A stretch of DNA of 64,000 nt from Candidatus Nanoarchaeia archaeon. GTDB taxonomy: Archaea > Nanobdellota > Nanobdellia > Woesearchaeales > ARS49. The translations under genes and the position numbers were made by a program. The notes under the pieces are model-generated. The model did not search any database and was not told the DNA's origin. It worked only from the letters and a program-made list of their open reading frames with translations. The DNA is taken from assembly GCA_041484255.1 (NCBI GenBank), contig JBGPHE010000001.1, forward strand, positions 6,240-70,239, in the 5' to 3' direction. Positions 3,108 through 39,700 of the stretch are shown one piece after another; position 1 is the stretch's first letter, and each line of letters starts with the position of its first letter.

Positions 3108-3114
3108 AAGTAAT

Positions 3115-5393: not shown

Positions 5394-5395
5394 AA

Positions 5396-7024: not shown

Positions 7025-7061
7025 GAACTCACCCCACTATGAAGGAAAACCCTTGACGGCG

Positions 7062-7071
7062 CTTTATAAAG
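7062..7071. promoter_or_regulatory. Palindromic TATA element CTTTATAAAG in the thermosome upstream region (divergent intergenic 7025-7126)
   Basis: About 40 bp upstream of the ths start (minus strand), with GGGGTGAG SD-like sequence between. Reads identically on both strands. Confidence 0.4.
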
Positions 7072-7126
7072 ATTATGAACGTTCAACCGCTATGTCACAA
7101 GCTTAATAAAAAGCATCATTTCACCG

Positions 7127-7456: not shown

Positions 7457-7466
7457 TGGTGTTCTC

Positions 7467-7958
7467 ATGGATTTGACGTTTACGTATCTCCGCGACCATG
7501 ACCGCACGGAGCCGTTCTATAAGGCGGCGACGAAAGGTTTGGAATGGCACCTCAATAATCCTGATCCTGGCTCGGAGTTTGAGACGACCGTGCAGAAGCT
7601 GGGGAATATTCCCGTGCAGCAGAAAATAACTCGCCTGCTCGCGCACGGCTATGACGTGCTGTTCAGCCTGGACGGCGCGACCATGGCTAATTTTCTCGCG
7701 CTCAGGCATCGCACCGAGCACAAGCCGACGAGCGTGTTCCGCGTGTATACACACGAGAACTACCGCGGCAATGGCATCGGCGCGCAGGCCGTGCAGAAGC
7801 TGATGCACGACTGCTTCGCGCAGGGCCACACGTCGTTGCGCGTGGGCGAAGGCAAGAGCGAAGGCGTTATCGGCGTGCTGAATCAGCTCAAGACGATGTA
7901 TCAGGGCCCGTACACGATTGACGTCACGCCTGACACCGGATGGATCAAGCGCATCTGA
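7467..7958 (+). CDS. GNAT-family N-acetyltransferase
   Basis: Motif A-like VYTHENYRGNGIGAQAVQKLM. The ATG at 7467 (MDLTF...) is taken as start rather than the 7383 start in the ORF track. Confidence 0.55.
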   Translation: MDLTFTYLRDHDRTEPFYKAATKGLEWHLNNPDPGSEFETTVQKLGNIPVQQKITRLLAHGYDVLFSLDGATMANFLALRHRTEHKPTSVFRVYTHENYRGNGIGAQAVQKLMHDCFAQGHTSLRVGEGKSEGVIGVLNQLKTMYQGPYTIDVTPDTGWIKRI

Positions 7959-20699: not shown

Positions 20700-21899
20700 A
20701 TGCCTGCCTTCGCGTCGCTGAAAGAGTTGCCGATTCGCGAAGGCAAGCGTGTTCTTGTGCGCGCTGATTTGAACGTTCCGCTGGACAAGCAGGGCAACAT
20801 CACAGACGACACGCGCATCCGCGAGTCCTTGCCGACGATTCAATTCCTTCTGAAAAAGAAAGCGATTGTGCTCCTCTTGTCGCATCTCGGCCGTCCGGAA
20901 GGCGTGGACGAGCATTTGCGCATGGACGCGGTCGCTGCGCGGCTGAGCAAGCTGCTGAAACAGCCGGTGCTGAAACTTGAGGACTGCATCGGCGCAGAAG
21001 TAGATGAAGAAATCGGCGAGATGCGCTCAGGCGAGGTCATGATGCTCGAAAACGTTCGCTTCCACCCTGAAGAAGAGGCGAACGACGACGCGTTTGCGCG
21101 CTCATTTGCAGAAATTGCGGATTTTTACGTTGATGATGCGTTCGGCAGCTGCCATCGCGCGCACGCGAGCGTTGTCGGCGTGCCGCAGTACCTGCCGAGC
21201 GCTGCGGGATTCCTGCTCGAGAAGGAAATCGCGATGCTGAGCAAGGCAGTGTCGCCGAAAAAACCGTTCGTGGTCGTGCTGGGCGGCGCGAAAGTGAGCG
21301 ACAAGATCGGCGTGATTGAGAATCTCGCCAAAAAGGCAGACCAAGTCTTGATCGGCGGCGCGATGATGTTCACGTTCCTGAAAGCGCAGGGCAAAAATGT
21401 CGGCAGCAGCAGGTTCGAGAGCGACAAAGTCGCGCTCGCGAAGAAATTGCTTGCGAAGTTCAAGGGCAAAATCATGCTTCCTGAGGACGTGGTCGTCGCA
21501 AAGAAGGCAGATGCCAAGTCAGCGACCAAGATTGTCGCGAGCAACAGCATTCCCGCGGGCTGGATGGGCTTGGACATCGGCCCGAAGACCGTCAAAAGCT
21601 ACACGATCTCGCTCAAGAAGGCAAAAACAGTGTTCTGGAACGGCCCGATGGGTATGTTTGAGCTCGCGCCGTTCGCAAAAGGCACAAAAGCCATCGCGCT
21701 CGCCGTCGGCAAGCTCAACGCAACAACAATCGTCGGTGGCGGCGACAGCGCGGCAGCCGTTCAGGAATGGAAGCTCGCGAACAAGTTTTCGCACGTCTCC
21801 ACTGGCGGCGGAGCATCGCTGGAATTCCTGGAAGGAAAGACATTGCCAGGCATTGCCGCGTTAGAAGCGAGCGCAAAGCGATTCGGTCTTAGAAAGTAA
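20700..21899 (+). CDS. pgk: Phosphoglycerate kinase (bacterial-like)
   Basis: [31 protein letters not shown]-terminal signature and hinge/ATP motifs. TATA-like at 20670-20677. Confidence 0.9.
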
Positions 21900-23626: not shown

Positions 23627-23917
23627 GTGAAAAAAGAGGGTGTTGAGAGTAAAGAGTACGAGAAATTCATACCGAGAGTCATCTTCACCTACTCGACGGA
23701 GCATCTTCTCAAGAAAGACAAGGTCAGATTCTATTACGCGCTGAAGGGCCGCGACGGAAAAACCGGCATCGTCAAGCGCTGCGCCATCGAACAGCTCGGC
23801 CGCACCGTGCTTCTCGTCCCGACGAAACACGCGGCAGATGTCGATGAATTCCTGAAGTACTGGAAGTGCGAATTCCAGCAGCGCCGCGTGCTCGTCGAGC
23901 CGGGAGTGGGCAAATGA
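23627..23917 (+). CDS. Small basic protein (96 aa) heading the giant-gene operon; GTG start, no internal Met
   Basis: ORF with GTG start 49 bp after TATA 23571-23578. Its TGA overlaps the ATG of giant gene 1 (ATGA at 23914-23917). Confidence 0.4.
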   Translation: MKKEGVESKEYEKFIPRVIFTYSTEHLLKKDKVRFYYALKGRDGKTGIVKRCAIEQLGRTVLLVPTKHAADVDEFLKYWKCEFQQRRVLVEPGVGK

Positions 23918-26900
23918 CTCCTGAAAAGCGCGTCGCGTTCGCCGTGCTCCTCTGCGCGGCGATTATCGGCGCAGGCGTGATGCTGCGCGATGCGCACGTG
24001 ACCGGCGATGCGACGTTCGGCACAACAGACTTCACGACGCAGGCAGTCGTCGCGCCCAAGCAGGTCATCCTCATCATCGTCGACGGAATGCAGTACAACC
24101 ATTACGTCACCATGCTGGGCTTCGGCAACCTGTCGAACTTCACGCGGCTGCTGAGCCGCGGCGGCTTCAACACCACGCTGAACATCACAAAGCACACCAG
24201 CACGGTCACCGCGCCGGGCAACGCAGAAATCTACACCGGATTGGGCAGCAGCATCACCGGCGTGACCTCGGACAACTGCAGCACGCCGGTGCCGGTCAAC
24301 ACCACCATCTTTGAGCGGCTCAAACAGTTCAACGCAAGCATCGCGACCGGGACTGTCTACGGCAAGCAGACCTGCTACATTCCGAACGGCGTGCTCGGCA
24401 ATGCCATGTCCGCAATCGACTGGTTCCAGAACCGGTCGCTGTACACGAATACGAACTGGACCGACAACGGCGATATTTGCGCATACGCCCGCAATGCCTC
24501 CACCAAGGCACAGGAGTTCATCGTCAACAACACCAACCGGTCGTTCTTCCTGGTACCGTACTTCGGCAACCCCGACTGCTCAGGCCATGTCGGCACGGAC
24601 AACTCGGTCAATTACAATAACTCCTTCATCGAGGTTGACTACGCGCTCGGCATCCTGCTGGACACGCTGCGCGACCAGGGCATCGAGAACAACACGGCGA
24701 TCATCATCAGCACCGACCACGGCTGGAACGAGGGAACCACAGGCCACTCAACGTTCAATGCGGACACCGCAATCATCCCCCTCATCACCAACAACCGCAG
24801 TGTCATTGCGAACGCGACCATCCTGGGCGTGCGCCAGCAGTGCGACATCGCACCGACCGTGCTGAGCTATTTCGGCGTGCCCTCGGCGAATTACTCAGAC
24901 ATCATCGCCAATGGCTGCTACTCGATGTACGACTCGCTGTTTGACACGCTCACCGGCTGCGCGACTATCAACGCGAGCACGACGCTCGGCCAGAACATCC
25001 AGGCGCCGGGCTCGGGAAGCTGCATCATCGTGAACGCGGACAATATCACGCTCAGCTGCGCAGGGTTCAGCATCGGCGGCAATGCGGCCGGCACCGGCAT
25101 CAATGTCACGAACCGCGCGAATGTCACCATCAAGGACTGCGTTCTTGAGAATTTCACCAACAACATTGTCCTCAACAGCACCAATGCAAGCGTCATCGTC
25201 AACACCACCGCCCGAAAGTCGACGTCCACAAGCATTCTTGTCAGGCAGGGCTTGCGCAACCTCCTCGCAAACAACACAGTCTCCGGCGATTTCATCGGCA
25301 TTCTGCTCTTCAACGGATCCAATAACACCCTGCGCAGCAACAACGTCAGCGGAATCTCGACCGGAATCACGCTGTTTTTCACGCAGAACAACACACTGAT
25401 CAATGATACCGGCGCGAGCACGTCAGGCACCGGCATTTTCCTCACCGCGTCTATCAACAACACGCTGAACAGCGTGCTCGCAACAAGCGTCAGCGGCAAC
25501 GGCCTGATGTTTTCCAGCATGGGTTTGGGAAACAACGTCATCGCGAATACGACCGGCCGCAGCAGCAGCGGCATCGGTGTGTACCTTACGAGCGGCGCGA
25601 ATCTCAATACCCTGCTGAACGTCACTGCCGCAAGCGACAGCAATGCGGCGCTCGCGTTTGACTTTTCCAGCGGAAGCAACCTGTTCAATGACACCACGCT
25701 CCTCAGCAACAGCACGTGGCTGTCGGCAGACAGCGACAGCTACTTCAATACCCTCACCAATGCCAGCTTCGTGTCCCAGTTTGGCGGCATCGCCGTCCTG
25801 AGAAACTTCACCCTTCCGAACGCGACGACCGTCACCCTCGCATCACTGAACATCACGAGCAACCGCGCGTTCCTGAACAGCACGAACCTGTCGTTCCTGA
25901 ACCAGACCGCAGTCATCACGCTGAACGGCGTCACGTCCGTCGACCCGAAGCCGCAGGTGGCCTTGGTCGATGGCGGGGCGTTCTCGGACTGCCTGCCGAC
26001 CGCAGACCCGTTCTGCACCGAACTGAGCTTCAGCGGCGGCGTGTTTGTCTTCAATGTCTCGCATTTCACGACCTTTGCGTCGTTTGAGAGCGCGGACGTG
26101 AATGTGACGCTGACCAAGTCAGACTCGCCCGACCCGGTGAACGCGAGCGGCTATCTGACCTACACTATTACAGTCAATGTCTCAGTGGGCAACGCAAGCA
26201 ATGTAACGCTTACCGATGTCTACCCTGCGCAAGTCATCTTCAATGGCTCCCAGCCCGCGCCGCTTGCCGGAACGAACAACACGTTTGTCCTGGGCAACCT
26301 GTCGCTGAACACCAGCACCGTCGTCAATATCACTGTGCTCGTGCTGAACGTGAGCAACAACACCATCATCAACAATACCGCGAACATCTCGTTCCAGAAC
26401 TCGACCGGCGGCATCGGACGGCTGAACGTGACTGAGAACACTACGGTCATCAACCTCACGTTCCCCGCGCCCTCGCCTTCGCCGACAAGCAGCGGCGGAA
26501 CCAGTGGCGGAGGCGGCTACAGCGTCAGGCCCACACCGAACGCTCCGTCAGTCGCTGCGTCGCAGAACTGCTTCGAAGGCTGGGCGTGCGAAGGCTGGAG
26601 CAGGTGCGAGAATGGCGCGCAGGAGCGCGCGTGCGTTGACCTGAATCACTGCGGCACCGAATCGCTCAAGCCCGCGACGACGCAGTCGTGCGCGAGCCCG
26701 CACGTGCAGGAGCTGGTGCAGGAAGAAGTCGTGGAGCAGCCCGCCGAGCTGCCCCCGCAGCAACCGCAACAGCCTATCCAGTTGCAGATGCAGGGTACAG
26801 AAACGTCTGCCGTGAAGACCGCGTTCTTCACATCCGGAAGCGCGCTGCTCTGGCTGCTCTTGTTCATCATCCTCGGCGGAATCATCGTCACGATCGCATA

Positions 26901-27228
26901 CGCGAAGTTCATGCACCGCGCTCCCGAAGCGCCCGAACCCGACCTTCCGCCCGCGCCGGGACGCGAAGAGCCGCTGCCCGCGCCTGAGCTTGACAATGGC
27001 CTTGCGCAAGAGCACGAAACGCCCTTTACTGAGGAGCTTGAGCTGCAGCCCGCGATAAGCAAGCCCGAACCAGAAGTGCAACGCGCGCTTCCCAAGCCTC
27101 GCGTGGCACGCAGCCGCGAAGAATTGGAGCAGATTGAACGCAAGCTCGCAAGCATTGAGAGTTCATTATCACGCAGCCGGCGCGCCGCACCAAAGCGCAG
27201 CAGCGCACGCAGGAGGACGCGCAAATGA
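23914..27228 (+). CDS. Giant surface protein 1 (1104 aa): signal anchor, nucleotide pyrophosphatase/phosphodiesterase (AlkP-superfamily) domain, parallel beta-helix repeats, DUF11 domain, six-Cys stalk module, TM helix, basic tail
   Basis: Single open frame; domain motifs described in findings; N-x-S/T-rich; C-terminal TM about 26830-26905. Stop overlaps the gene 2 ATG. Confidence 0.8.
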   Translation: MTPEKRVAFAVLLCAAIIGAGVMLRDAHVTGDATFGTTDFTTQAVVAPKQVILIIVDGMQYNHYVTMLGFGNLSNFTRLLSRGGFNTTLNITKHTSTVTAPGNAEIYTGLGSSITGVTSDNCSTPVPVNTTIFERLKQFNASIATGTVYGKQTCYIPNGVLGNAMSAIDWFQNRSLYTNTNWTDNGDICAYARNASTKAQEFIVNNTNRSFFLVPYFGNPDCSGHVGTDNSVNYNNSFIEVDYALGILLDTLRDQGIENNTAIIISTDHGWNEGTTGHSTFNADTAIIPLITNNRSVIANATILGVRQQCDIAPTVLSYFGVPSANYSDIIANGCYSMYDSLFDTLTGCATINASTTLGQNIQAPGSGSCIIVNADNITLSCAGFSIGGNAAGTGINVTNRANVTIKDCVLENFTNNIVLNSTNASVIVNTTARKSTSTSILVRQGLRNLLANNTVSGDFIGILLFNGSNNTLRSNNVSGISTGITLFFTQNNTLINDTGASTSGTGIFLTASINNTLNSVLATSVSGNGLMFSSMGLGNNVIANTTGRSSSGIGVYLTSGANLNTLLNVTAASDSNAALAFDFSSGSNLFNDTTLLSNSTWLSADSDSYFNTLTNASFVSQFGGIAVLRNFTLPNATTVTLASLNITSNRAFLNSTNLSFLNQTAVITLNGVTSVDPKPQVALVDGGAFSDCLPTADPFCTELSFSGGVFVFNVSHFTTFASFESADVNVTLTKSDSPDPVNASGYLTYTITVNVSVGNASNVTLTDVYPAQVIFNGSQPAPLAGTNNTFVLGNLSLNTSTVVNITVLVLNVSNNTIINNTANISFQNSTGGIGRLNVTENTTVINLTFPAPSPSPTSSGGTSGGGGYSVRPTPNAPSVAASQNCFEGWACEGWSRCENGAQERACVDLNHCGTESLKPATTQSCASPHVQELVQEEVVEQPAELPPQQPQQPIQLQMQGTETSAVKTAFFTSGSALLWLLLFIILGGIIVTIAYAKFMHRAPEAPEPDLPPAPGREEPLPAPELDNGLAQEHETPFTEELELQPAISKPEPEVQRALPKPRVARSREELEQIERKLASIESSLSRSRRAAPKRSSARRRTRK
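24052..24900 (+). other. Nucleotide pyrophosphatase/phosphodiesterase (type I phosphodiesterase, AlkP-superfamily) domain of giant protein 1
   Basis: Motifs in NPP-like order: IIVDG (24079-24093), KHTSTVTAPG...YTG (Thr nucleophile context, about 24205-24240), PYFGNPDCSGHVG (24571-24594), STDHGW (24707-24724). Confidence 0.6.
26569..26691 (+). other. Six-Cys membrane-proximal module, copy in gene 1 (CFEGWACEGWSRCENGAQERACVDLNHCGTESLKPATTQSC)
   Basis: Conserved pattern shared with 35943-36065 and 52951-53073. Confidence 0.7.
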
Positions 27229-30200
27229 GCGGCAACGCACAGAAGCGGACCGTGATGCTGCTCGTGCTTGCCTTGGGCCTGCTCGGCGTAGGTACTATGA
27301 TATTCGGCTCGACGCACAGCCCTGCCGCGCTGACCGGACTTGTTACTGACAATGCAAGCGTTCAGCCGGAAGCGCCTGCTGAGCAGCAGCCGATTCCCGA
27401 ATTGCAGGCAGAAGCGACGCCAGAACCGTCATTCTCCACCGAAGCGGCCGCTCCGCGGCTCGTCGATCCTGCGGTGGAACGAGCGCTTGCGGAGAACGGC
27501 ACCGCAGACATCATCATCATCCTCAAAGAAGACGCCGCGTCGCTGTTCGAAACCGAAACGAGCCAAGCAGATGCGCTCGCGCAGCGAAAGGCGTCTGTCG
27601 CGGCCGTGCGCACGGCGTTCGCCGCGGAAATGGGCGGCGGATTCGGAACTGCGAGCAACGCGTTCGAAGTCACGCGCGAGTATGATACGCTCAATGCCAT
27701 CGCGGCAACCATCACCAGCGTCGGCCTGGAAATCTTGAAGACGCGCCAGTCGGTCGAACAGATCGTGCTGGACCGCAGGCTCACGGTCGACCTTACCGTG
27801 AGCGTGCCGCTCATCGATGCGGACGACGTCTGGAACCTCACCGTCAACGGAAGCAACCTCACCGGCAAGGGCGAGGTCATCTGCATCATCGACACAGGCA
27901 TCGACGCCACGCACGTCGCGTTCACCAACAAGATTTTGCCCGGCCAGGACTATGTCAATGAAGACAGCAATCCCGCCGACGACGCGGGCCACGGCACGCA
28001 CGTCTCGGGCATCGCCGCGGGCAACAGCAGCCCGGTGCTCGGCGTCGCAAAGGACGCGAAGATCCTGCCCGTCAAGGTGTGCGACAGCGGCGGCACGTGC
28101 CAGGACACGGATATCCTTGCAGGCATCGACTTCTGCAACAACAACTCGGCGACCTACAACATCAGCGCGATTTCCGGCTCGCTCGGCGACAACAGCCAGT
28201 ACAACTCGACGACCTGCCCGACCACGTACGACAGCATCTTCGCGACGTCGAACTCCTTGGGGCTTATTCCGGTCTTCGCGTCGGGCAACAATGCGTTCAC
28301 GAACGGCATCAGCCACCCTGCCTGCTCGCCGTACGCCATCAGCGTGGGCTCCACGACCAAGGCAGACGCGATGAGCTCGTTCACAAACAGAGGGGGCGAC
28401 CGCCTGGACGTTCTCGCGCCCGGCAGCAGCATTGTTTCCGCGCTCATCACTGGCGGAACCGTCTCCGCATCGGGAACATCGATGGCCACGCCGCACGTCT
28501 CGGGAGCGATCGCGCTCATCCAGCAGAACCAGCGCGCGCTGAACCGCGCCATTGTCAACATCACCGACATGCGCACATTGCTCCAGCAGACCGGCGTGAA
28601 TGTCACGAGCTGGCAGCGCATCGACGTGTACAACGCGATCGCCAAGCTCAACCAGAACTACACCATCAACATCACGGACAACTCTATCGCGAACGGAACG
28701 ACACGCGGCGCAAAGGTGCGGTTCAGCAACTTCACCGATATGAGCAGGTTCGTGGATTGCGGCGTAGTCAGACCCAACTTTGTAGGCATCGACTCCGCAG
28801 CATGCCCGCAGCTGAACAAGAGCGCGCACATCACGTTCGCGAACATCACTGGCATCGGCGCCAGGCCGCTGCGCAACGGCGTGCCCTGCCCGCCCAGCAT
28901 CTGCCAGAACTTCACGTTCGGCAACGGCACGGTCGACTTCGACGTCACGGAGTTTTCAAACTACAGCAGCTTCAACCTGACGAACCTCACCGGCTGCGCG
29001 AACGTGAACGTCAGCTCGGTGCTGACGCAGAACGTCTCCAGCACGAGCAACTGCATCAACATTACTGGAAACAATGTCATCCTGTTCTGCAACGGATTCA
29101 CAATTGCGTTCGACACGGCAGGCGGCGGGCTTGACAACGGCATCAGGGCCAACCAGCGCCGCAATATCACGGTCGACAGCTGCATCATCAGAGATACCAA
29201 TGCAGGAGGCGCGGGCGCTGTGGGAATCGTCGTCAATGGGACGAACAACAGCATCTTCATCAACAACTTTATCCAAGTCAACGGAACGGCGAACAACAAC
29301 GGCTTCATCCTGGACTTGTTTGCGAATAATGTCACCATCGCCAACAACACCGTCAACTCGCGCGGAACGCTCGCGTTCGATTTCCCCATCCAAGTCAGGA
29401 ACCCCGTCAGCAATATCACCATCGCCAACAACACGCTCGTGACGGTGGGCTTGGGCAACAGCGAATGGGGCATTGACGACAGCGGGCTCCAGGACACAGT
29501 CGTCACCAATAATATAATCATTGCACTTTCGGACGGCGGCCTCAACTTCGGCTTTCGCGTGAATGCAGTGCCCCTCAATCTTCAGGTAAGCGACAACAAC
29601 ATCAGCGTGAACGGGAGCGGAAGCTATGCGCTCGTGTTCCCCGACTCTTTAGGGAGCACGCCCAATACCACATTCTCCAACAACGTACTGGGCACGACCA
29701 GCGGCTGGATTACCGTGGGCGCCTTCGCGCGAGTCAACATCACCAACACCACGTTCCGCATGCCGAACGGCAGCATCACCATCCCCGGAACGGTGCAGCT
29801 CAACGAATCGACGGACGTGCTGATTTCCAAGCTGAACATTTCTGCAAATCAGGCGTACCTGAACAGCACAAACCTGACCGCGCTCAACACGACCGCGATC
29901 ATCGCGCTGAACAGTGTCGGCTTCAATGATCCCAAGCCGCAGTTCAGGTTCGGCGAGACCGGCGCGTTCACCGACTGCACACCCACCGTCAACCCGTTCT
30001 GCACCGAGCTGGGCTTCAGCGGCGGCGTCTTCACGTTCAATGTCTCGCACTTCACCGGCTACATCAGCGCGGAAGGCGGCAGCGTCAACCTCACCGGCTG
30101 CGCGACCGTCAACGCGAGCACGGTGCTGACGCAGAACATCGCGTCCAATGACACGTGCCTCTTCACGAACGCGAGCAATATCGTCATCTCCTGCGCAGGG

Positions 30201-33200
30201 CACACCATCACGTACAATGCCAACGGAAGCGGCGCCCTGAGCGATTTCGGAATCAATGTCACGCGCTCATCCAACCTGACCATCACTGACTGCATCGTCC
30301 GCAACGGCAACCTGTCGAGCACCATCGGCGACGCGATGAGCGTGTTCTTCACGAATTACAGCACCTTCAACAACATCTCGCTTGCGGACAACGGCTCCAA
30401 CATCGGGCTGTTCATCATGACGTCGCACAATAACACGTTCGGAAACGATACTGTCCTGACAGGATCTGTTGAGCTGAACGCCATCGCGGAGAACAACTTC
30501 ACCGGCAATGCGTTCAATGGCTCCATTGACAATAGCAACAGCAGGCGGGACATCTTCACGTTCAACACGATGAACGCATCCGTCTCCCTCCAGTCAGGCG
30601 ACGCACGCCTGCGCTTCAACAACATCACCGTCTCCGGCGCGGGTCCGGGCATCAACACCGATCCCGCCGGACCGTTCGAGTTCACCGGCAACCGCGTCGA
30701 GGTGAACGGCGTGAACCCGACCGCGTTCCGCCTTGCCGCGAGCAACGGCAACTTCACCAACAACACGTTCCTTGCGAACGCGTCCGGCACGTCTGTCGCA
30801 ATCAGCATCGAGGCGAGCTCGTCAGGGAACTTCACCGGCAACAATTTCACCGCGCGCGGGACCGCCTCGACCGCGATCCGCTGGCAGTTCTCAGTCCCCA
30901 ACACGACGAGCTTCAGGGACACCGTCATCTCTTCAGACGCAAGCTGGATTGACATGAATCCGAGCGGCGCGGTCACGCCGTCCATCAATTACACGAACAC
31001 GACGTTCGTTTCGGGCAACGGCAGCATTAACATCATCGGCTTCGCGCAGCTGAACAACACCCAGAACGTCACGCTTGCCCGGCTCAATATCTCATCCAAC
31101 CGCGCGTTCCTGAACACTACGAACATCTCCGCATTCAACCAGACCGCAGTCATCGCGCTGACCGGCATCGGCTTCACTGACCCGAAGCCACAGGTCGCCT
31201 TTGTGGATGGCGGCGCGTTCTCGGACTGCTCGCCGACCGCGAACCCATTCTGCACTGAGATAAGTTATACGGGCGGCGTGTTCACGTTCAACACGTCGCA
31301 CTTTACCAGCTTTGACAGCGCGGAAAGCACCGTGACAAACTGCACGCTCGGACCTGTGCTGGTCAACAGCAGCCTCACGCTCGCGCAGGACCTTACCGGC
31401 AACGGCACCTGCCTCATCGCGAACACGAACAACATCGCCATTGACTGCGCAGGATTCGCCATCAACTTCGACCGCGGCGGAGGATTCGGCCCCATATTCG
31501 GCATCGCCGCGCAGAGAAAGACGAACATCAGCATCACCAGCTGCATCATCAGAAGCATCAACGCTTCGGGCCAGAACGGATACTCCATCAACTTCTCGAA
31601 CGTAACACAGTCGGTCATCACCAACAACACGCTCATCGCGAACGGGTCGAACTCGATCGGCATCTACATCGGGGTGAGCTCAGTCGGCGTCAATGTCACC
31701 AACAACACCATCGGCGCATCGCCTATCGGGTTCGTGGTCGGCGTCTCTATCGACAACTCGTCGTTCATCAACGTCAGGAACAGCATACTTATCGCCAACA
31801 GCAGCACCGGCCCTGCCGAGGGCATCCAAGCGACCTCCAACGCGCAATTCATCGCGGTGAGCAACAACAGCATCCGCGTGCTGCAGACTTCAGGCTCCCA
31901 GCCGACAGGATTTGTCATCAATGGCGGCAACGCCACATTCGCAGGCAATACTGTTGTAGTAAATCTGTCCGACACGAGCGACGCGACGGGAATCAGCGTG
32001 GGCGGCGGCGCGGACTTCGTGGTCGAGAACAACACCATTATCCTCGCAATCAACACGACAGACACCATCAACACCAAGCGGGCGTTCCAGCTCGCGTCGC
32101 TGAGCAACGCGGTCGTACGCAACAACACAATCGTCCTGCTTGGCTCTGCCAAGTTCTTCATGGGCATGCTGCTCTCCATCCTGAGCAACGTGACCATCGC
32201 GAATACGAACATCACGTCATTGGCAGAGACGAACACTTCGCTGATAGTCATCGACGGCGTCTTTGGCACAACAACCGTGACGCTGACGAACACAACCCTT
32301 TCCGCGCTCAATGACCCTTGGATCCAGCAAGAAGGAACCGCCGCAACCTCCTCGAACTTCACCAACACAACATTCATCGCGCAGAACGGCTCGGTCCAGT
32401 TCCCTGGATTGGTCCAGATAAACGGCACCAACAACGTGAGCGCGCAGCGGCTCAATATCACCGCGAACCTCGCCTTCCTCAACAGCACCAACCTGACGTT
32501 CCTCAACCAGACTGCAATCATCGCGCTGAAAGGCATCGTATCGGTCAGCCCGAAAGCGCAGGTCGCGTTCGTTGACGGCGGCGCATTCAGCGACTGCATC
32601 AGCACGGCGAACCCGTTCTGCACCAACCTCAGCTACGCAGGGGGCGTCTTCACGTTCAACACGTCGCACTTCACCAGCTACCAGAGCGCGGAGAGCGGGA
32701 CGAACATCACCGGATGCCCCATCACCATTAATGTGAGCACGACGCTGACGCAGAACTTGCAAAGCAACAGCAGCTGCATCACGTTCGGCAATGACAGCAT
32801 CGCGCTCGACTGCGGCGGATTCGCCCTCAACGGCACGCAGAACGGCACCGGCATCAATGCGACCGCAAGGAACAACATCTCCATCGTCAACTGCTTCGTC
32901 AATAACTTCACGCAGGATATCGTGCTCGACCGCGTCAACAACAGCGTGATGCGCAATGACACCGCGCGCAGCGCGGCGCAGGAAGGCGTCCTGCTCTACT
33001 CGGCCGTCAACGACCTCCTCGTGAACGTCTCGGGCGAGGGCGCGGTCAACCGGGACGGAATCCAGCTGGTCAATTCCACCACTGCAGGCACCAACAACAC
33101 GCTCATCGGCGTGAACGGCACGAGCAACAGCTCGTCAGGCGTGGGGCTGAATATCCAAATTGACAATACGACCGTCAATGACAGCAGGGGCGTAAGCCTC

Positions 33201-36200
33201 AACCACCGCGGCATCCAAATCCTCAGTTCGGGCAACCGCGCGACCAACCTCACCGGCATCGGCGTAGACGTCGGAATGCTGGTCACCACCGGCAGCTTCA
33301 ACAACGTGACGGGAAGCACCGGCATCGGCGTCCCCGGCCTCTCATTCAGCAGCGCAAGGAGCACGTACGCCAACAACCTCGGCATCAGCACGAATGGCAT
33401 CGCAATCAGCGTCGCGGGCGGCAACCTCACGCTCGTCAATAACACTGGCAGGAGCAATGCGACCTCAGGCATCAGAATCGACGGGGCAGACTTTAACCTG
33501 ACCGGCAACACCGGCGTCAGCAACACATCGGTCGGCATCCACTCGCCATTGAGTTTCGTCAACAGCATCGTTGTGGGCAACAACGGAACCGGTCCCGCCG
33601 GCATCTCCATCGGCGCAGGCGGCGGCGCGTTCAATGACACGTTCCTCAATAACGTCGGAACGGGCGTTGCAAGCGTGGGATTCGCGATCGGCGGCGACAA
33701 TCAGACTGCCATCAACAACACCGGAACAAGCAACGGCTCGTTCGGCATGCAATTCCTTACCGGCGGCGATAACCTTGCAGTGAACAACACAGGAATCAGT
33801 ACGGCAAGCAGCGGTATCGACGTGCGCGTCTACAGCAGGTCGCGGTTCCTGAATAATACCGCCAGCAGCGGGAGCGCCACGGCACTGGCAATCCTGGTCT
33901 TAAGCACTAATAACACCTTTGCCAACACCACACTCTTCACCAATGCGACTTGGATTATTACCGACGGGACAAGCCCCGACAACAACATCACGAACACGCT
34001 CTTCCAGGGCAGCGCAGGCAGCATCCGCGTCTTCGGCCTCGCGAACATCCCGGGAAGCGCCAACGTGAGCATTGCGCGGCTGAACACGAGCGCGAACCGC
34101 GCGTTCCTGAACAGCACGAACCTGACGTTCCTCAACCAGACCGGACAAGTCACGTTCACCGGCGCGACGAGCAACCAGGTGCTGGTGGACTTTGACGACG
34201 ACAACTCGTTCTCGTTCTGCGACGCGAGCATCTGTTCAGTCGTCAGCTTCGCGGGCGGCACGCTGGTTGTCAATGTCACGCACTTCACGACGTTCTCGTC
34301 GACCACCGGCAACTCGAACATCACGCTGACCAAGACCGACTCGCCCGACCCGGTCAATGCCAGCAGTAATCTGAGCTACCAGATTTCGGTCAATGTCACG
34401 TCCGACAGCCCGAGTAATATTACGCTGACCGACCAATACCCTGCGCAAGTCATCTTCCTCACGGCGCAGCCGTCGCCCATCGGCGGAACGAACAATACGT
34501 TCATTGTCGGCAATCTGACCGCGAATATGTCGTTCACGGTAAACGTCACCGTGCTCGTGCTGAACATCACCAACGGCACCGTCATCAACAACACTGCAAA
34601 CATCTCGTTCCAGAACAGCACGGGCAGCGTCATCGCGCTGAGCGTGACCGAGAACACCACCGTCAGCAATCCGCCGCAGATTAACGACAGCACGATCAGC
34701 GTGACCAAGACCGACACCCCCGACCCGGTCGAGAACGGCACGCAGCTCAACTATACTATCACGGTGACGGTCATCAGCGGCGTTTCCGCGTTCAATGTCA
34801 CGGTCAATGACACGTATCCGTCGCAGGTCATCTTCAACAGCGGCCAGCCGTCTCCGGTGCCGGGAACGAACACCACGTTCATCCTCGGCAACCTGTCTGC
34901 GGGCGCGGTCGTCGTGCTCAATATCACTGTGAATGTCTCGGCAGGCGTCATCAACGGCACCGTCATCAACAACACCGTCAATGTCACATTCCAGAACACG
35001 ACCGGCGGCCTGCTGAGCGCGCTCGCGAACGCGAGTACGACTGTGCAGAACGTGACGGTCAATGTCACAACGTTGTTCAACCTGAGCAACATCAGTGTCA
35101 TCAAGACCGACACGCCCGACCCGGTGACTGCAGGCGACATACTGACCTACCAAATCAATGTCACGAGTAACGGCAACGGCACCGCGTTCAACGTGATTGT
35201 CAATGACACGTACCCTGCGGAAGTTATCGCGTTCATGTCCTCCCCTCCGCTCGTTCCGGGAACGAACAACACGTACACGCTCGGCAACCTGACGCCCGGC
35301 ACGCTCTTCACCATCAACTTCAGCGTCGCGGTCAGGAACATCACGAACGGCACGGTCATCAACAACACCGTCAATGTCACGTTCCAGAACGAGACCGGTG
35401 GATTGTTCAGCAGAGTCACCACGCAGAACACCACCGTCCTGAACCCGCCAGTCTTCAACCTCAGCAATGTCAGCGTGACGAAGAGCGACACGCCCGACCC
35501 GGTCGAGAACGGCACGCAGCTCAACTATACTATTACGGTCACGAGCACGGGCAACGGCACGGCGTTCAATACAACCGTCATCGACACGTACCCTGCTGAA
35601 GTCGTCTTTAACACCGCCCAGCCGACGCCGAGTTCGGGCAATAACACGTTCATCATCGGCAACTTGACCGCGGGAACGGTTGTCGTGCTGAACATCACGG
35701 TCAATGTGACGCAGGTCGCAAACGGAACCGTCATCAACAACACCGTCAATGTCACGTTCCAGAACGAGTCGAGTGACTTGCTGAGCGCGCTTGCGAACAC
35801 GAGCACGCTGGTGCAGAACGTCACGCCGACGCCCACGCCTCCGACGCCGCAAGGCAGCAGCGGCGGAAGCGGTGGCGGCGGAGGATTCAGCATCAGACGC
35901 AATGAGACTGTCGCGGCAGGAGTTCCCGCCCCGTCAGGACCGTGCGTCGAAAGCTGGGCGTGCGAGCAGTGGGGCCAGTGCCAGGACGCCAGCCAGGCAA
36001 GAATCTGCGTCGACTTGAGCCAGTGCGGCACGGCGACATTGAAGCCGGCGACCGAGCAGCGCTGCGCGATTACGCCGCTGCGCGAGCAGCCGATACCTGT
36101 GGAGCCTGAACAGCCTGCGCCCGTGCAAGTGAGCGCGCCCGTTCCGGTTGTTGTGCAGGAGAAATCAAAGAGCTGGACGCTTGTAGGCATCCTGCCGGTC

Positions 36201-36731
36201 GCGATTGACGTATTGCTCATCCTCTTCGCGCTTATCGCAATGACGCACATGCTGCGTTACCGCAGCGATCGCGCGAGCGGGCACTGGCTGGCGGCAGTGG
36301 ACATCATCGGAGGAATCACACTCATCGCGCTTGTCGCACACTACATCATCAGCAGGGCATTCCTGCCGGTCGAGTACATCACCTTTGTCGTATTGCTGCT
36401 GTTTGTCGCAGTGCTGCGGCTTGCCGAGCGCGGCAGGGACTTCGGAGGAGCGCCGCGCGTTCCGCGCATCCCTGCATTGCCTGATGCGCCTGAGGAAATA
36501 GTCCTTGAAGACGAGCCCGCGCCGAAGAAAGCAGCAATCAAGGCTCCGAAGGCAGAGCACAAGCACGCGGGCCCGAAGAAGCCCTTGTTCAGCTTCTTCC
36601 AGCCCAAACCGAAGGTCGAGGACGACATGAAGGACGTCTTTGACTCGCTCGACCGCATCAGCACGCTGCTGGAGAGGAACAAAGTCACGATCAGAGCTCC
36701 GAAAAAGAAGAGCCGGGTGAGAAAAAAGTAA
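27225..36731 (+). CDS. Giant surface protein 2 (3168 aa): signal anchor, I9 propeptide, subtilisin S8 protease, four beta-helix blocks separated by two-Cys junction modules, 4 DUF11 units, six-Cys stalk module, 3 C-terminal TM helices, basic tail
   Basis: Single open frame of 9.5 kb. Catalytic triad motifs IIDTGID / HGTHVSG / GTSMATPHVSG. Confidence 0.8.
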   Translation: MSGNAQKRTVMLLVLALGLLGVGTMIFGSTHSPAALTGLVTDNASVQPEAPAEQQPIPELQAEATPEPSFSTEAAAPRLVDPAVERALAENGTADIIIILKEDAASLFETETSQADALAQRKASVAAVRTAFAAEMGGGFGTASNAFEVTREYDTLNAIAATITSVGLEILKTRQSVEQIVLDRRLTVDLTVSVPLIDADDVWNLTVNGSNLTGKGEVICIIDTGIDATHVAFTNKILPGQDYVNEDSNPADDAGHGTHVSGIAAGNSSPVLGVAKDAKILPVKVCDSGGTCQDTDILAGIDFCNNNSATYNISAISGSLGDNSQYNSTTCPTTYDSIFATSNSLGLIPVFASGNNAFTNGISHPACSPYAISVGSTTKADAMSSFTNRGGDRLDVLAPGSSIVSALITGGTVSASGTSMATPHVSGAIALIQQNQRALNRAIVNITDMRTLLQQTGVNVTSWQRIDVYNAIAKLNQNYTINITDNSIANGTTRGAKVRFSNFTDMSRFVDCGVVRPNFVGIDSAACPQLNKSAHITFANITGIGARPLRNGVPCPPSICQNFTFGNGTVDFDVTEFSNYSSFNLTNLTGCANVNVSSVLTQNVSSTSNCINITGNNVILFCNGFTIAFDTAGGGLDNGIRANQRRNITVDSCIIRDTNAGGAGAVGIVVNGTNNSIFINNFIQVNGTANNNGFILDLFANNVTIANNTVNSRGTLAFDFPIQVRNPVSNITIANNTLVTVGLGNSEWGIDDSGLQDTVVTNNIIIALSDGGLNFGFRVNAVPLNLQVSDNNISVNGSGSYALVFPDSLGSTPNTTFSNNVLGTTSGWITVGAFARVNITNTTFRMPNGSITIPGTVQLNESTDVLISKLNISANQAYLNSTNLTALNTTAIIALNSVGFNDPKPQFRFGETGAFTDCTPTVNPFCTELGFSGGVFTFNVSHFTGYISAEGGSVNLTGCATVNASTVLTQNIASNDTCLFTNASNIVISCAGHTITYNANGSGALSDFGINVTRSSNLTITDCIVRNGNLSSTIGDAMSVFFTNYSTFNNISLADNGSNIGLFIMTSHNNTFGNDTVLTGSVELNAIAENNFTGNAFNGSIDNSNSRRDIFTFNTMNASVSLQSGDARLRFNNITVSGAGPGINTDPAGPFEFTGNRVEVNGVNPTAFRLAASNGNFTNNTFLANASGTSVAISIEASSSGNFTGNNFTARGTASTAIRWQFSVPNTTSFRDTVISSDASWIDMNPSGAVTPSINYTNTTFVSGNGSINIIGFAQLNNTQNVTLARLNISSNRAFLNTTNISAFNQTAVIALTGIGFTDPKPQVAFVDGGAFSDCSPTANPFCTEISYTGGVFTFNTSHFTSFDSAESTVTNCTLGPVLVNSSLTLAQDLTGNGTCLIANTNNIAIDCAGFAINFDRGGGFGPIFGIAAQRKTNISITSCIIRSINASGQNGYSINFSNVTQSVITNNTLIANGSNSIGIYIGVSSVGVNVTNNTIGASPIGFVVGVSIDNSSFINVRNSILIANSSTGPAEGIQATSNAQFIAVSNNSIRVLQTSGSQPTGFVINGGNATFAGNTVVVNLSDTSDATGISVGGGADFVVENNTIILAINTTDTINTKRAFQLASLSNAVVRNNTIVLLGSAKFFMGMLLSILSNVTIANTNITSLAETNTSLIVIDGVFGTTTVTLTNTTLSALNDPWIQQEGTAATSSNFTNTTFIAQNGSVQFPGLVQINGTNNVSAQRLNITANLAFLNSTNLTFLNQTAIIALKGIVSVSPKAQVAFVDGGAFSDCISTANPFCTNLSYAGGVFTFNTSHFTSYQSAESGTNITGCPITINVSTTLTQNLQSNSSCITFGNDSIALDCGGFALNGTQNGTGINATARNNISIVNCFVNNFTQDIVLDRVNNSVMRNDTARSAAQEGVLLYSAVNDLLVNVSGEGAVNRDGIQLVNSTTAGTNNTLIGVNGTSNSSSGVGLNIQIDNTTVNDSRGVSLNHRGIQILSSGNRATNLTGIGVDVGMLVTTGSFNNVTGSTGIGVPGLSFSSARSTYANNLGISTNGIAISVAGGNLTLVNNTGRSNATSGIRIDGADFNLTGNTGVSNTSVGIHSPLSFVNSIVVGNNGTGPAGISIGAGGGAFNDTFLNNVGTGVASVGFAIGGDNQTAINNTGTSNGSFGMQFLTGGDNLAVNNTGISTASSGIDVRVYSRSRFLNNTASSGSATALAILVLSTNNTFANTTLFTNATWIITDGTSPDNNITNTLFQGSAGSIRVFGLANIPGSANVSIARLNTSANRAFLNSTNLTFLNQTGQVTFTGATSNQVLVDFDDDNSFSFCDASICSVVSFAGGTLVVNVTHFTTFSSTTGNSNITLTKTDSPDPVNASSNLSYQISVNVTSDSPSNITLTDQYPAQVIFLTAQPSPIGGTNNTFIVGNLTANMSFTVNVTVLVLNITNGTVINNTANISFQNSTGSVIALSVTENTTVSNPPQINDSTISVTKTDTPDPVENGTQLNYTITVTVISGVSAFNVTVNDTYPSQVIFNSGQPSPVPGTNTTFILGNLSAGAVVVLNITVNVSAGVINGTVINNTVNVTFQNTTGGLLSALANASTTVQNVTVNVTTLFNLSNISVIKTDTPDPVTAGDILTYQINVTSNGNGTAFNVIVNDTYPAEVIAFMSSPPLVPGTNNTYTLGNLTPGTLFTINFSVAVRNITNGTVINNTVNVTFQNETGGLFSRVTTQNTTVLNPPVFNLSNVSVTKSDTPDPVENGTQLNYTITVTSTGNGTAFNTTVIDTYPAEVVFNTAQPTPSSGNNTFIIGNLTAGTVVVLNITVNVTQVANGTVINNTVNVTFQNESSDLLSALANTSTLVQNVTPTPTPPTPQGSSGGSGGGGGFSIRRNETVAAGVPAPSGPCVESWACEQWGQCQDASQARICVDLSQCGTATLKPATEQRCAITPLREQPIPVEPEQPAPVQVSAPVPVVVQEKSKSWTLVGILPVAIDVLLILFALIAMTHMLRYRSDRASGHWLAAVDIIGGITLIALVAHYIISRAFLPVEYITFVVLLLFVAVLRLAERGRDFGGAPRVPRIPALPDAPEEIVLEDEPAPKKAAIKAPKAEHKHAGPKKPLFSFFQPKPKVEDDMKDVFDSLDRISTLLERNKVTIRAPKKKSRVRKK
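27462..27798 (+). other. Subtilase propeptide (inhibitor I9-like) of giant protein 2
   Basis: IIIILKEDAASLFE...FEVTREYDTLNAIAATITSVGLEILKTRQSVEQIVLDRRL precedes the catalytic domain. Confidence 0.55.
27850..28630 (+). other. Subtilisin-like serine protease (S8) catalytic domain of giant protein 2
   Basis: Asp at about 27888-27906 (IIDTGID), His at 27990-28010 (HGTHVSG), Asn at about 28279-28296 (ASGNN), Ser at 28471-28498 (GTSMATPHVSG). Confidence 0.8.
34310..35830 (+). repeat. Array of 4 DUF11-type (TIGR01451 conserved repeat domain) units in gene 2, about 380 nt each
   Basis: Each unit: [IV]T[KL]TD.PDPV......L.Y.I.V.......NVT..D.YP..V.F...QP.P..GTNNTFI.GNLT.....V.NITV.V.N.....VINNT.N..FQN. 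Confidence 0.65.
35943..36065 (+). other. Six-Cys membrane-proximal module, copy in gene 2 (CVESWACEQWGQCQDASQARICVDLSQCGTATLKPATEQRC)
   Basis: Same Cys/Trp spacing as the gene 1 and gene 3 copies. Confidence 0.7.
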
Positions 36732-36738
36732 TCAATTG

Positions 36739-39700
36739 ATGGGGGACATGGGCAGAAACAGACGAGGGGTGGTGTCTGAACGGACGCTTATTGGCATTGT
36801 GCTACTTGCAGGGCTGCTCGGCATCGGCGTGATGCTCTGGGCGACGGGAATCGTCTCCTTTGCGCAGCAGCACGGCGTCACCGGCAGCGCGGTCGCGTCC
36901 ATCACCGGCCTCGCAGCGGATGATCTCGAAACGCAGCCGTCATTCACGGCCACGCCCGCTCCGAACACGGCGCCTATCTATAGAGGCCCTGCCAGCTTCA
37001 GCACGCCGCAGGACACAGCACTCACGATTGACTTGTCGCAGTACTTCTCCGATGCGGAAAACGACGAACTCACCTTCATCGCGTCGTCCGAAGACGTCAT
37101 CGCAGTCGCCATCGACGGCAACGCGCTCACGCTGACGCCTGCGGCAGGCTTCGCGGGCGAGCGTTCGCTGACCGTCATCGCGTCAGACGGCGTCAACCTC
37201 GCGCGCACGCCGGTCAAGATTGTCGTGGAAGGCACGCAGGCCACGCCGCCTGCACCGCAGCAGGAAGCTCCTGCGCCTGTGGAGCAGCCGCCCGCGACCA
37301 ACGAGTCCGCAGCGAACGAGACGCCGTTCAATACGCAGGAAGAAGAATTCACCAATCCTGTATTCAACACGCAAGTCACGAGCATCAGCGCCTGCACGAA
37401 CATCAGCACGCCGGGCGAGTACGCGCTCAGCACCGACCTCTCGCGGAACATCACCTGCATCGTCATCCAGACAGACAACGTGAGCTTCAGCTGCGCAGGC
37501 CACACTATCACCTGGGACACGCAAGGTCTGCGAAACATCTCAGGCTTCACGAGCTTCATCTCCGCGATCAACATCAACAAATCAGGCAGGACGCTCTTCA
37601 ATGTCACAGTCAGGGACTGCCGCCTGATCGACGGCACTGTCGGCGGATTCAACGACCACGCGATCGTGCTGCAGGACACGAACGATTCGCTCATTTTCAA
37701 CAACACCCTCGTTGCATCCGGCGAGACGTCGCTGGGAATTGAGATTGTTCGGACGGGAAACATCAACATCTCAAGCAACCGCATCAATGCGTCGTCGTTC
37801 GGAGGCGCTCAGGCGATCGCCAACGCGATCCAGTTCAATCTTTTCAGCAATAATGTCAGCATCTCCGACAATGACATCCGCGGATTCCTTTCCGGCAGCG
37901 GAATCAGGACGGTCGGCGTGATGGTTGACGCGACCTCGAATCCCCACGATGTGGAAGTCGTCGGGAACAGTATCACCGTCAACTCGACCGGTGGAAGCGC
38001 AACCTCAACAGGGATGAACGGCGTCACCGGCTTCGGCACATTCCTCAACGCGACCAACAATGACGTGCAGGCGTTCGGCTCAGGACCGAGCGGCGTGCTG
38101 GCAAATGGGGCGTTCTTCAACCGCATCCTCGCGCGGGGTTCCACCGCAGAGGGTCTGCGTGTCGGAGAGCTTGCAGACTCCAATAATATCACTGTGAATG
38201 GCAGCACCACTGGCGCGCTCGTGGGGTTTAACGGCAACTCGACATACAGCAACAACCGGCTCATCGCGACCGGCAGCTGGATATATACTTCCTTGAACGG
38301 GAACACTACTTTCATCAACACCACGTTTGTCAACGCAAATGGCACCCTCCTGTTCTACAATTTCTACATTGATGATGTCGTCATTGTCCAGCAGAGCGAC
38401 CTCAATACCACCATCAACCACGCCTATGTGAACAGCGTCGACTTCCCGTTCCTGAACACGAGCGCGGAGATCTTCCTGCAAGGATTCAATCTCACGAACA
38501 ACAAGCCCGTGGTCGACTACACGGACACCAACCACTTCCAGGGCTGCCCGGACACCTGCACGCTGCTCGAGACGGGCGACAACTTCATCCGCTTCACCGT
38601 CACGCACTTCACGACCTACTCGTCTTCGGACCTGGTCCTGCTGCTCGAAAAGTCCGACAGCACCGACCCGGTGCGCATCGGCTCGCTGTTCAATTACAGC
38701 GTCGCCGTGAGCGTGCTGAACGGCAACGCGAACAATGTCACGCTCACCGACCTGTACCCGCTTGAAGTTGTCTTCAATTCCTCGCAGCCTGACCCGATCG
38801 ACGGCACGAACGACACGTTCATCCTGGGCAACCTGACCGAGAACACGACGTTCATAGTGAACATCACGGTGCAGTCGCTGACGAACGATTCAGGCATCGT
38901 CAACGTCACCAACGGCACCGTCATCAACAACACCGTGAACATCACGTTCCAGAACGACACGAGCGACGTGTTCACGCTGAACGACACCGAGGAGACGACG
39001 CTCGTTGAGGCGACCGAGAACTTCGAGCCGCTCTCGGACTGCGCAGTCATCAATACCAGCTCGTTCCTGACGACGAGCGTTTCGGGCACGGGCACGTGCA
39101 TCACCATCGGCAATAACAGCATCACGCTGGAATGCGCAGGGAACACGATAACGTATGCGACAACAGGCCCGGGAAGCGCTATTTTCGCGGAAGACAAGTA
39201 TAATTTCACGGTGCGGAACTGCACGCTCGTGCTCGGCGACCTCAACAGGCTCTCCCTGTATGACTCGCCAGCCATCAACGCGACGAACACCACGAGCGGA
39301 GTCAACAACCGTATCGACGGCTCCTCGTTCCGCCTGCTCAATTACTTCTACCAGGACGGTTTGCCGCAGCAGAACTGCGGCGACCTCTCATTGAATGACT
39401 CAGCCTTCACCGGCAACGCCACGTGCACGAACATCACCTTTGTTGCGCGGGCGCGTATCAGGGTGAACTCGACCGCGGTCTCCAACAACTCAATCGCGTT
39501 TATCACGGACAACTTCCTGCTCGGGGTGCGCGCGTTCATCAACGCGAACGGCACCGGATACCCTGGAGGCGCGGATGGTAATGCGAACGGCTCCGGCCCC
39601 GGAGGCGGCATCGACCCGGTCAGTATCAATCGCGGCGGCGGCGGCGCAGGACACGGCGGAATCGGCGGCCAGAGCAATGTGCCGCAGGGCGCAGGCGGAA

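Follow-up and report, generated by a model that had tools for sequence, protein, structure and literature searches.

What does the N-terminal head of a giant archaeal surface protein do, and on which side of the membrane does it act? The question is raised by a 64,000-nucleotide stretch of contig JBGPHE010000001.1 of a Candidatus Nanoarchaeia archaeon (the window), in which four giant genes, G1 to G4, lie in tandem. G1, the smallest of the four, has its parts in the order signal/anchor, AlkP-type head, beta-helix, beta-sandwich, DUF11, Cys-rich module, transmembrane (TM) helix and cytoplasmic tail. A previous sequence-only reading of the window had assigned to G1 an apparently intact, extracellular head like that of the nucleotide pyrophosphatases/phosphodiesterases (NPPs). 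Here we propose that the G1 head is probably an extracellular hydrolase for phosphodiester or pyrophosphate bonds, namely a compact two-metal phosphoesterase on a membrane-anchored, N-glycosylated surface protein of a Woesearchaeota-like (DPANN) archaeon, and that it would most likely act as a diesterase rather than a monoesterase. The fold of the head, the alignment of its residues, their conservation, the marks of an extracellular location and the recurrent fusions are what the comparisons and models show; which metals are bound, whether and on which class of substrate the head acts, how the signal is processed and what part G1 plays in the cell are what we infer.

Family and fold of the G1 head

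The gene and the domain in question are as follows.

23914..27228, + strand: gene G1, 1,104-aa surface protein (open reading frame; ATG overlapping the upstream stop; identical JGI gene call)
24058..24933, + strand: compact AlkP-superfamily (NPP-like) catalytic domain, aa 49-340

Residues are numbered from ATG 23914; numbers in the sequence-only reading are 16 higher, and the interval that it gave for the head, 24052-24900, corresponds to aa 47-329.

When the whole of G1 was searched, PF01663 (type I phosphodiesterase/nucleotide pyrophosphatase, NPP) scored 52 bits (E=1e-13) against a cut-off of 23, and the head alone scored 55.8 bits (E=7e-15). A word-indexed search returned 34 relatives, mostly proteins of 300-330 aa, and the source names of most were 'alkaline phosphatase family protein' or 'predicted AlkP superfamily pyrophosphatase or phosphodiesterase'. 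Like G1, 26 of 26 relatives scored well over the PF01663 threshold. A profile (A1) was built from 26 of the 34 relatives and retrieved, among 1.84 billion proteins, 308 cluster representatives at E<1e-30 and 2,101 at E<1e-10; the database names of 10 more distant relatives were generic only. Against the PDB sequences, the A1 profile matched the Xanthomonas (Xac) NPP first (2e-16), followed by ENPP3, ENPP4, ENPP5, ENPP7 and ENPP1, and further down by PhoK (7e-12), PafA (3e-9) and, last, sulfatases and iPGM, so that the NPPs were preferred over PafA by about 7 orders of magnitude. The family scores and the rank of Xac NPP bear out the NPP-like head that had been read from the motifs.

The fold of the G1 head has the alpha/beta core common to alkaline phosphatase (AP), NPPs, sulfatases and iPGM. 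Structurally, the head was as near to PafA and the sulfatases as to the NPPs, and Foldseek ranked sulfatases and LtaP/LtaS first. The second Pfam family on G1 was PF00884 (Sulfatase), which was over threshold at 43-47 bits and matched through the end of its model. As judged by sequence comparison, the G1 head is an AlkP-superfamily domain with the NPP family as its best match; more precisely, it is an NPP-like core of minimal size whose C-terminal third is short, as in the sulfatases, and not a canonical NPP. PF01663 was already listed for G1 by JGI, while another source names the protein 'parallel beta-helix repeat protein'. The enzyme type is thus already recognized by standard annotation; for the compact branch, and for its occurrence in surface proteins of DPANN, literature searches turned up no description.

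Predicted catalytic residues and their spacing

The motifs and residues of the predicted active site are listed below, with conservation counted over 203 domain copies collected from all retrieved proteins (about 180 per column).

24073-24087, + strand: motif IIVDG, aa 54-58
24082..24084, + strand: D57, metal ligand as aligned to Xac NPP D54 and PafA D38; Asp in 175 of 180 domains
24193-24228, + strand: motif HTSTVTAPGNAE, aa 94-105
24208..24210, + strand: T99, predicted nucleophile, aligned to Xac NPP T90 and PafA T79; Thr in 176 of 181 domains, Ser in 4
24271..24276, + strand: D120-N121, with D120 in the column that aligns to NPP N111 and PafA N100
24364..24366, + strand: K151, family-conserved Lys; Lys in 163 of 179 domains
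24574..24588, + strand: D221-x3-H225 (D-C-S-G-H), metal-ligand pair as aligned to Xac NPP D210/H214; Asp in 184 of 184 domains, His in 182 of 184
24715..24720, + strand: D268-H269, metal-ligand pair as aligned to Xac NPP D257/H258; Asp in 176 of 182 domains, His in 180 of 182
24745..24747, + strand: H278, predicted last metal ligand, 9 residues past H269; His in 162 of 179 domains

The catalytic set was 91-100% conserved across these domain copies, and D57, T99, D221, H225, D268, H269 and H278 were invariant in A1. In the alignment of A1 with 2GSN, D57, T99, column 120, D221, H225, D268 and H269 fell on chain positions 15, 51, 72, 171, 175, 218 and 219, and a single offset of 39 turned all seven into D54, T90, N111, D210, H214, D257 and H258, which we take to be the published catalytic residues of Xac NPP. 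The constancy of the offset supports this assumed numbering. A phmmer search with the N-terminal half of the head aligned T99 to PafA T79, and the aligned residue was Ser in the T79S mutant chain 5TOO. The four motifs named in the sequence-only reading therefore lie in canonical order, all inside 24052-24900, and its Asp, Thr and His residues map to NPP catalytic positions when aligned to Xac NPP and PafA, with conservation throughout the family.

Two features were added to that reading, the end of the domain at about aa 340 (nt 24933) and the sixth metal ligand. H278 is the only conserved His after DHG, and the model places it in a loop that joins the DHG strand (E261-266) to the strand that follows (E287-292); topology and analogy predict it to be the sixth ligand. 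K151, which lies just past the central beta-strand (E144-149 in the model), is a candidate contact of a phosphoryl oxygen.

The distances between these residues separate the NPPs from PafA. From the Thr to the Asn column there are 21 residues in G1, in Xac NPP and in PafA alike, while from the Asn column to the first Asp of D-x3-H there are 101 in G1, 99 in Xac NPP and about 205 in PafA (taken from chain indices 89 and ~294). The next two distances, from that Asp to its His and from this His to the Asp of DHG, are 4 and 43 in both G1 and Xac NPP. A high-throughput study of PafA (the HT-MEK paper) showed that K162 and R164 set monoester preference by contacting the O2 phosphoryl oxygen and lie in an auxiliary domain (AD), and that ADs 2 and 4 are found in AP-superfamily mono- and diesterases alike. 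Given the spacing of 101, the region that would bear K162 and R164 is short in G1, as it is in diesterases.

This spacing bears on the possibility that the head is instead a PafA/PhoK-like phosphomonoesterase (alkaline phosphatase), which would free inorganic phosphate from extracellular organic phosphate for uptake. We give this possibility a small but real chance. The top NCBIfam match of the head was PafA, though a partial one (43.5 bits against a cut-off of 650), and phmmer of the N-terminal half matched only PafA in the PDB; the whole profile, as described above, strongly preferred the NPPs. A conserved Lys past the central strand recalls the Lys and Arg that set the monoester preference of PafA at the O2 oxygen (HT-MEK paper), but K151 has no Arg partner and position 153 is variable. 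Furthermore, with an NPP-like distance between the Asn column and D-x3-H, the extended auxiliary domain 3, which carries K162 and R164 in PafA, and the 'monoesterase helix' cannot be present in G1.

Probable extracellular location of the head

The placement of the enzyme at the cell surface, as the sequence-only reading had it, found independent support in glycosylation sequons and in the covariation of cysteines. The features concerned are:

23929..23988, + strand: N-terminal hydrophobic segment, aa 6-25 (hydropathy)
23995-24006, + strand: H-V-T-G, aa 28-31, possible signal-peptidase site (motif comparison)
24277-24279, 24373-24375, 24478-24480, 24577-24579, 24841-24843 and 24916-24918, + strand: six head cysteines, Cys 122, 154, 189, 222, 310 and 335

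G1 contains 62 N-x-S/T sequons, compared with 21.8 +/- 4.0 expected from its composition (maximum 36 in 1,000 shuffles). All of them lie at aa 72-847, with 16 in the head, between the two hydrophobic segments that hydropathy places at aa 6-25 and aa 975-998, one at each end of the protein. The head cysteines pair across homologues as 122/154, 189/222 and 310/335, with almost no half-pairs: the pattern CCCCCC was found 21 times, ....CC 16 times, and CC..CC and ..CCCC 7 times each, and G1 has all six. Because the cysteines appear and vanish in pairs, the head would contain three disulfides. Two of these would staple active-site loops, as C122 is beside the Asn loop and C222 is beside the metal ligand D221. 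Taken together, these patterns place the G1 head very probably outside the cell.

How far the enzyme could reach is a separate matter. In G1-G4 and in Woesearchaeota homologues (L003, L004, L014), the N-terminal hydrophobic segment is succeeded by a [VLI]-T-G motif (HVTG, ALTG, GVTG, AVTG or SLTG), which stands a few residues beyond it in G1 and as many as about 15 beyond it in the others. The motif fits the -3/-1 rule of signal peptidase I, which makes cleavage plausible; it could also be something else. If G1 were cleaved after V-T-G31, the mature protein would begin at D32 and the enzyme would sit at the distal tip of a C-terminally anchored protein. Whether the enzyme could reach a partner cell depends on this putative cleavage of the N-terminal segment.

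Distribution of the module and its fusion partners

A distribution scan was carried out with one genome per species and with search patterns specific to the close subfamily of the module; the distribution of loci therefore holds for that subfamily only. The scan found 17 loci, 12 of them in DPANN-labelled or unclassified archaeal metagenome-assembled genomes (MAGs; Woese-, Pace- and Nanoarchaeota, 45-63% identity) and two in bacteria of the Candidate Phyla Radiation (CPR; Patescibacteria and Saccharibacteria), where the module is a stand-alone protein of 312-316 aa. Two further loci were distant Bacteroidota matches and one was labelled Methanosarcinales. The first 70 residues of this last protein (L006, 'uncultured Methanosarcinales archaeon') are those of the protein from a Nanoarchaeia MAG (L002), with the same open-frame coordinates, and one of these public MAGs may have been misbinned or mislabelled. 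Relatives at a greater distance are found in Methanocellales and other archaea. Outside DPANN and CPR genomes, the close subfamily was hardly found.

The module usually forms part of a large anchored protein in DPANN. Two Woesearchaeota homologues (L004 and L014) share with G1 the layout of head plus beta-helix. In six proteins (L007, L012, P0036, P0038, P0040 and P0051) an S8 subtilase is fused with the AlkP-type module, and in P0050 the partner is a papain-type (C1) protease. These protease-AlkP fusions are single anchored proteins of about 950-1,600 aa (L007 at 4522-7809, L012 at 275-3586). In P0035 three copies of the module accompany lectin-like domains, P0039 has it alongside DUF11, lectin-like and CARDB domains, and Ig-like domains are also among the partners in other DPANN proteins. 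Since protease and AlkP module are fused elsewhere in DPANN, the pair formed by G1 and the subtilase-headed G2 next to it looks like a split form of a recurrent protease-plus-phosphoesterase combination.

These associations suggest a specialization of the phosphodiesterase reading, in which the head would be a tool for the host envelope: a phospholipase C/D-like enzyme or a phosphodiesterase for phospho-glycans or teichoic-type polymers, which together with a protease and a glycan-binding beta-helix would open or harvest the host surface. We consider this version unlikely as it stands. It draws on the repeated DPANN fusions with S8 and C1 proteases and lectin-like domains, on the position of G1 beside an S8-headed paralogue that has the same stalk and an overlapping start codon, on the near confinement of the close subfamily to DPANN and CPR genomes, and on the presence among the matches of ENPP2, ENPP6 and ENPP7, lipid phosphodiesterases of the NPP family. 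The stalk resembles phage tailspikes and polysaccharide lyases, but that fold match is generic, with TM-scores of 0.2-0.4. Distal display would hinge on the putative signal cleavage, the substrates named are candidates only, and the CPR homologues are stand-alone proteins of about 315 aa in uninformative surroundings; the neighbourhoods of the stand-alone homologues in CPR and Nanoarchaeota (L010, L011 and L013) gave no functional hint. Doubtful to the same degree is the broader proposal that the compact module is a dedicated ectoenzyme family of ultra-small episymbionts (DPANN and CPR), which would form a working unit with a surface protease and with a tailspike-like beta-helix that binds glycans, and would cut phospho-linked components of the host envelope, for instance phospholipid head groups or phosphodiester-linked glycans.

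Deviations at the G1 active site

Several observations weigh against a phosphodiesterase of the NPP kind. The PF01663 match in G1 is confined to model positions 1-233 of 342, and G1 lacks the insertion of about 105 residues that the NPPs carry between DHG and their last His, its H278 being 9 residues past H269. The absence of this insertion explains why PF01663 was matched over its first part only while the Sulfatase model was matched to its end. The last metal-binding His of the NPPs is presumably H363, and the insertion probably corresponds to AD4. The residue after the nucleophile is Ala (A100) in G1 and not the aromatic residue of the NPPs; in the wider family it is Lys or Ala. The nucleotide or nucleoside slot of the NPPs is formed by the aromatic residue after the nucleophile (Xac F91) and a Tyr five residues before the Asp of D-x3-H (Xac Y205). 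In the G1 family, Y216 is conserved in 56 of 57 close relatives. The conserved K151 could favour monoesters. Finally, searches of the literature on DPANN giant surface proteins and on AlkP or NPP enzymes of Woesearchaeota and other DPANN archaea gave no paper in which the compact branch is described or characterized.

A further deviation is at the conserved Asn. In Xac NPP, N111 contacts a phosphoryl oxygen, and column 120 has Asn in 167 of 180 domains. G1 is among the 13 that do not, 8 of which have Asp; its sequence here is S119-D120-N121-C122, with the Asn one residue later, and the displaced N121 falls within a glycosylation sequon (N121-C-S). The closest relatives of G1, including one 80% identical, carry D-N-T-C. 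The flanks of S-D-N-C are in ungapped register, so that the D-N dipeptide is shifted by one residue. A one-residue deletion after the Asn was considered and rejected, both because of this register and because S-D-N-C and D-N-T-C are of equal length. The head that had been called apparently intact is intact in its metal ligands and Thr nucleophile, and deviates at the conserved Asn column. Judged from the alignment, these deviations leave the metal site unbroken but make the level of activity and the substrate uncertain.

It could be argued that catalysis by the G1 head is weakened or lost and that the main role of the head is to bind phosphorylated ligands. This would agree with an Asp that only a 7% minority shares and that the closest relative lacks, with a possible glycan on N121, and with the finding that some Asp-bearing copies are second copies in multi-copy proteins. 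Nevertheless, G1 has kept the full set of six metal ligands, the Thr nucleophile and K151, an Asn is still one residue away in the loop, and none of the three disulfide pairs is lost, which makes a weakened or inactive head quite improbable.

Membership among the sulfatases or the LtaS/EptA-type phospho-group transferases, both in PF00884, is hardly tenable and was rejected: the over-threshold PF00884 match to the model end, the Foldseek ranking and the short DHG-to-His spacing with its 'IIPLI' strand do recall that branch, but the nucleophile context is T-A-P-G-N rather than the formylglycine motif C/S-x-P-x-R, the D-x3-H second-metal pair is of the NPP/AP type, and G1 has a single hydrophobic segment at either end instead of a polytopic membrane domain.

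Proposed mechanism

For the two-metal phosphoesterase that we favour, the chemistry would proceed as in the AlkP superfamily. One Zn(II) would be held by D57, D268, H269 and the side chain of T99, which would thereby be activated. T99 would attack the phosphorus of a phosphate ester or anhydride to give a covalent phospho-threonine intermediate. A second Zn(II), held by D221, H225 and H278, would stabilize the leaving group and then activate a water molecule, with release of phosphate, while the Asn loop (D120/N121) and K151 may contact the non-bridging oxygens. The head would be borne on the tailspike-like beta-helix, the beta-sandwich and DUF11, with the C-terminal TM helix as the anchor. 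Candidate substrates are nucleotides, nucleic-acid fragments, phospho-linked lipid head groups and glycans, and the role could be nutrient scavenging or processing of the host surface alongside the subtilase of G2.

Start codon, stalk and neighbouring genes

Two findings mark ATG 23914 as the true start of G1: it overlaps, as ATGA, the stop codon of the 96-aa open reading frame before it, and JGI, calling genes independently on this metagenome contig, arrived at precisely the 1,104-aa product that starts there. GTG 23866, the start in the open-reading-frame list, would add an upstream extension only and was rejected on the same evidence. The overlap suggests that the 96-aa frame, in which no Pfam family was matched, is translationally coupled to the giant-gene array.

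The remaining parts of G1 and the genes around it are:

20700-21899, + strand: PGK
23627-23917, + strand: 96-aa open reading frame, its stop overlapping the G1 start (ATGA)
24946..25788, + strand: right-handed parallel beta-helix, about aa 345-625 (Pfam Beta_helix/NosD, AlphaFold2 model, Foldseek)
25831..26088, + strand: connecting beta-sandwich, about aa 640-725 (paralogue alignment A2, BLAST against G2-G4, low-confidence model)
26107..26394, + strand: single DUF11 (PF01345) domain, aa 732-827 (E=1.2e-7, 32.4 bits against a cut-off of 24.6)
26569..26691, + strand: six-Cys module, aa 886-926, common to G2, G3 and DPANN homologues (L005, L016)
26836..26907, + strand: C-terminal TM helix, aa 975-998 (hydropathy peak 2.8)
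26908..27225, + strand: 106-aa cytoplasmic tail, rich in Pro and Glu, basic at its end and free of sequons
27225..36731, + strand: G2, 3,168 aa, S8 subtilase head at 27864-28595 (Peptidase_S8 E=3e-43; paralogy with G1)
36736-53535, + strand: G3, 5,599 aa, Ig/cadherin-like head
~53955->64000, + strand: G4, >3,340 aa, Ig/cadherin-like head, running off the end of the window

The beta-helix was modelled with a confidence (pLDDT) above 90 and a triplet-strand periodicity, and its Foldseek matches were phage tailspikes, polysaccharide lyases, the PfbA adhesin and NosD. A beta-sandwich module without a Pfam match in G1 trails every beta-helix in G1-G4. A Pro/Ser/Gly linker connects DUF11 to the six-Cys module, which has the pattern C-x-E-x-W-x-C-x2-W-x2-C-x6-7-R-x-C-x-D-x3-C-G-T-x3-K-P-x-T-x3-C, matched no Pfam family and lies just outside the C-terminal membrane anchor; the G2 and G3 copies are likewise near the C-termini. 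The sequence-only reading had described a beta-helix/DUF11 stalk of about 800 aa with a TM anchor. Its module types and TM helix were recovered, whereas the stalk proved to be about 500 aa long with one DUF11, followed by the Cys-rich module, the TM helix and the 106-aa tail.

The stalk unit (aa 336-850) is repeated many times in G2-G4 at 30-65% identity, while the G1 head has no counterpart in G2, G3 or G4. G2, which has the stalk and anchor modules of G1, starts within the G1 stop (ATGA). G2-G4 together fill about 40 kb of the 64-kb window. Upstream of G1 are housekeeping genes, an RsmB-like methyltransferase, GAPDH, PGK and RNase P Rpr2. The best named matches of the PGK, at 60-69% identity, are from Woesearchaeota; its identity to PGKs of Firmicutes (Desulfofundulus, Caldicoprobacter) is about 59%, which makes it a PGK of bacterial type in the genome of an archaeon. 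Neither an Rfam nor a tRNA scan of the 64-kb window gave any match.

Significance

The genomes of DPANN archaea and CPR bacteria are tiny, and these organisms rely on other cells for their nucleotides and lipids and, in many cases, for phosphate. To our knowledge, how these compounds are acquired at the cell-cell interface is largely unexplained. A conserved and, from its sequence, apparently active extracellular phosphoesterase that is repeatedly built into large surface proteins beside proteases is a concrete candidate for a part in uptake. If the proposal of a host-envelope ectoenzyme family were true, the module would belong to the long-sought machinery by which episymbionts unable to synthesize lipids or nucleotides take them from their hosts. 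With about 290 residues and three disulfides, it is small enough for expression and assay. We claim no unusual chemistry for the G1 head. Regardless, a naturally minimal NPP-like core without the insertion of the studied NPPs and PafA could interest enzymologists who ask how auxiliary domains tune mono- versus diesterase specificity.

Comparison with known systems

With the NPPs (PF01663; 2GSN, ENPP1-7), the G1 head shares the Thr nucleophile with its T-x-P surroundings, the set of six Asp/His metal ligands and a nearly identical motif spacing up to DHG; like the ENPPs, it is predicted to be extracellular, glycosylated and membrane-tethered. It differs from them in having no insertion of about 105 residues, an Asp at the Asn column, an Ala for the aromatic residue past the nucleophile and the conserved Lys151, and in being carried on a beta-helix/DUF11 stalk instead of being joined to somatomedin-B or nuclease-like domains. 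PafA and PhoK (5TJ3, 5XWI) align to G1 in their N-terminal motifs, including T79 and N100, and have the two-metal core, but the large auxiliary domains that carry K162 and R164 are absent in G1. The type I sulfatases and LtaS/EptA (PF00884) have the same compact C-terminal third (DHG, short loop, His, beta-strand and helix), from which G1 is set apart by its D-x3-H second metal site and by the lack of a formylglycine motif and of a polytopic membrane domain.

As a whole protein, G1 resembles the DPANN giant surface proteins, of which the nanohaloarchaeal 'SPEARE' proteins (PMC10266531) are the described example. Though small for the class, it comes from a DPANN genome and has their N-terminal signal, their C-terminal anchor and a very long ectodomain made up of adhesin-like repeats, and G1-G4 form a tandem array of such proteins, for which a role in host contact has been proposed. 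Unlike the 'SPEARE' proteins, G1 has only 1,104 aa and no VirB4/TraG-like ATPase domain was seen in it, and its stalk consists of a beta-helix and DUF11 rather than Ig/fibronectin arrays. The 'SPEARE' proteins, for their part, have no AlkP-type head as described, and the words 'phosphatase' and 'phosphodiesterase' are absent from that paper (PMC10266531); the predicted phosphoesterase at its N-terminus distinguishes G1 from them.

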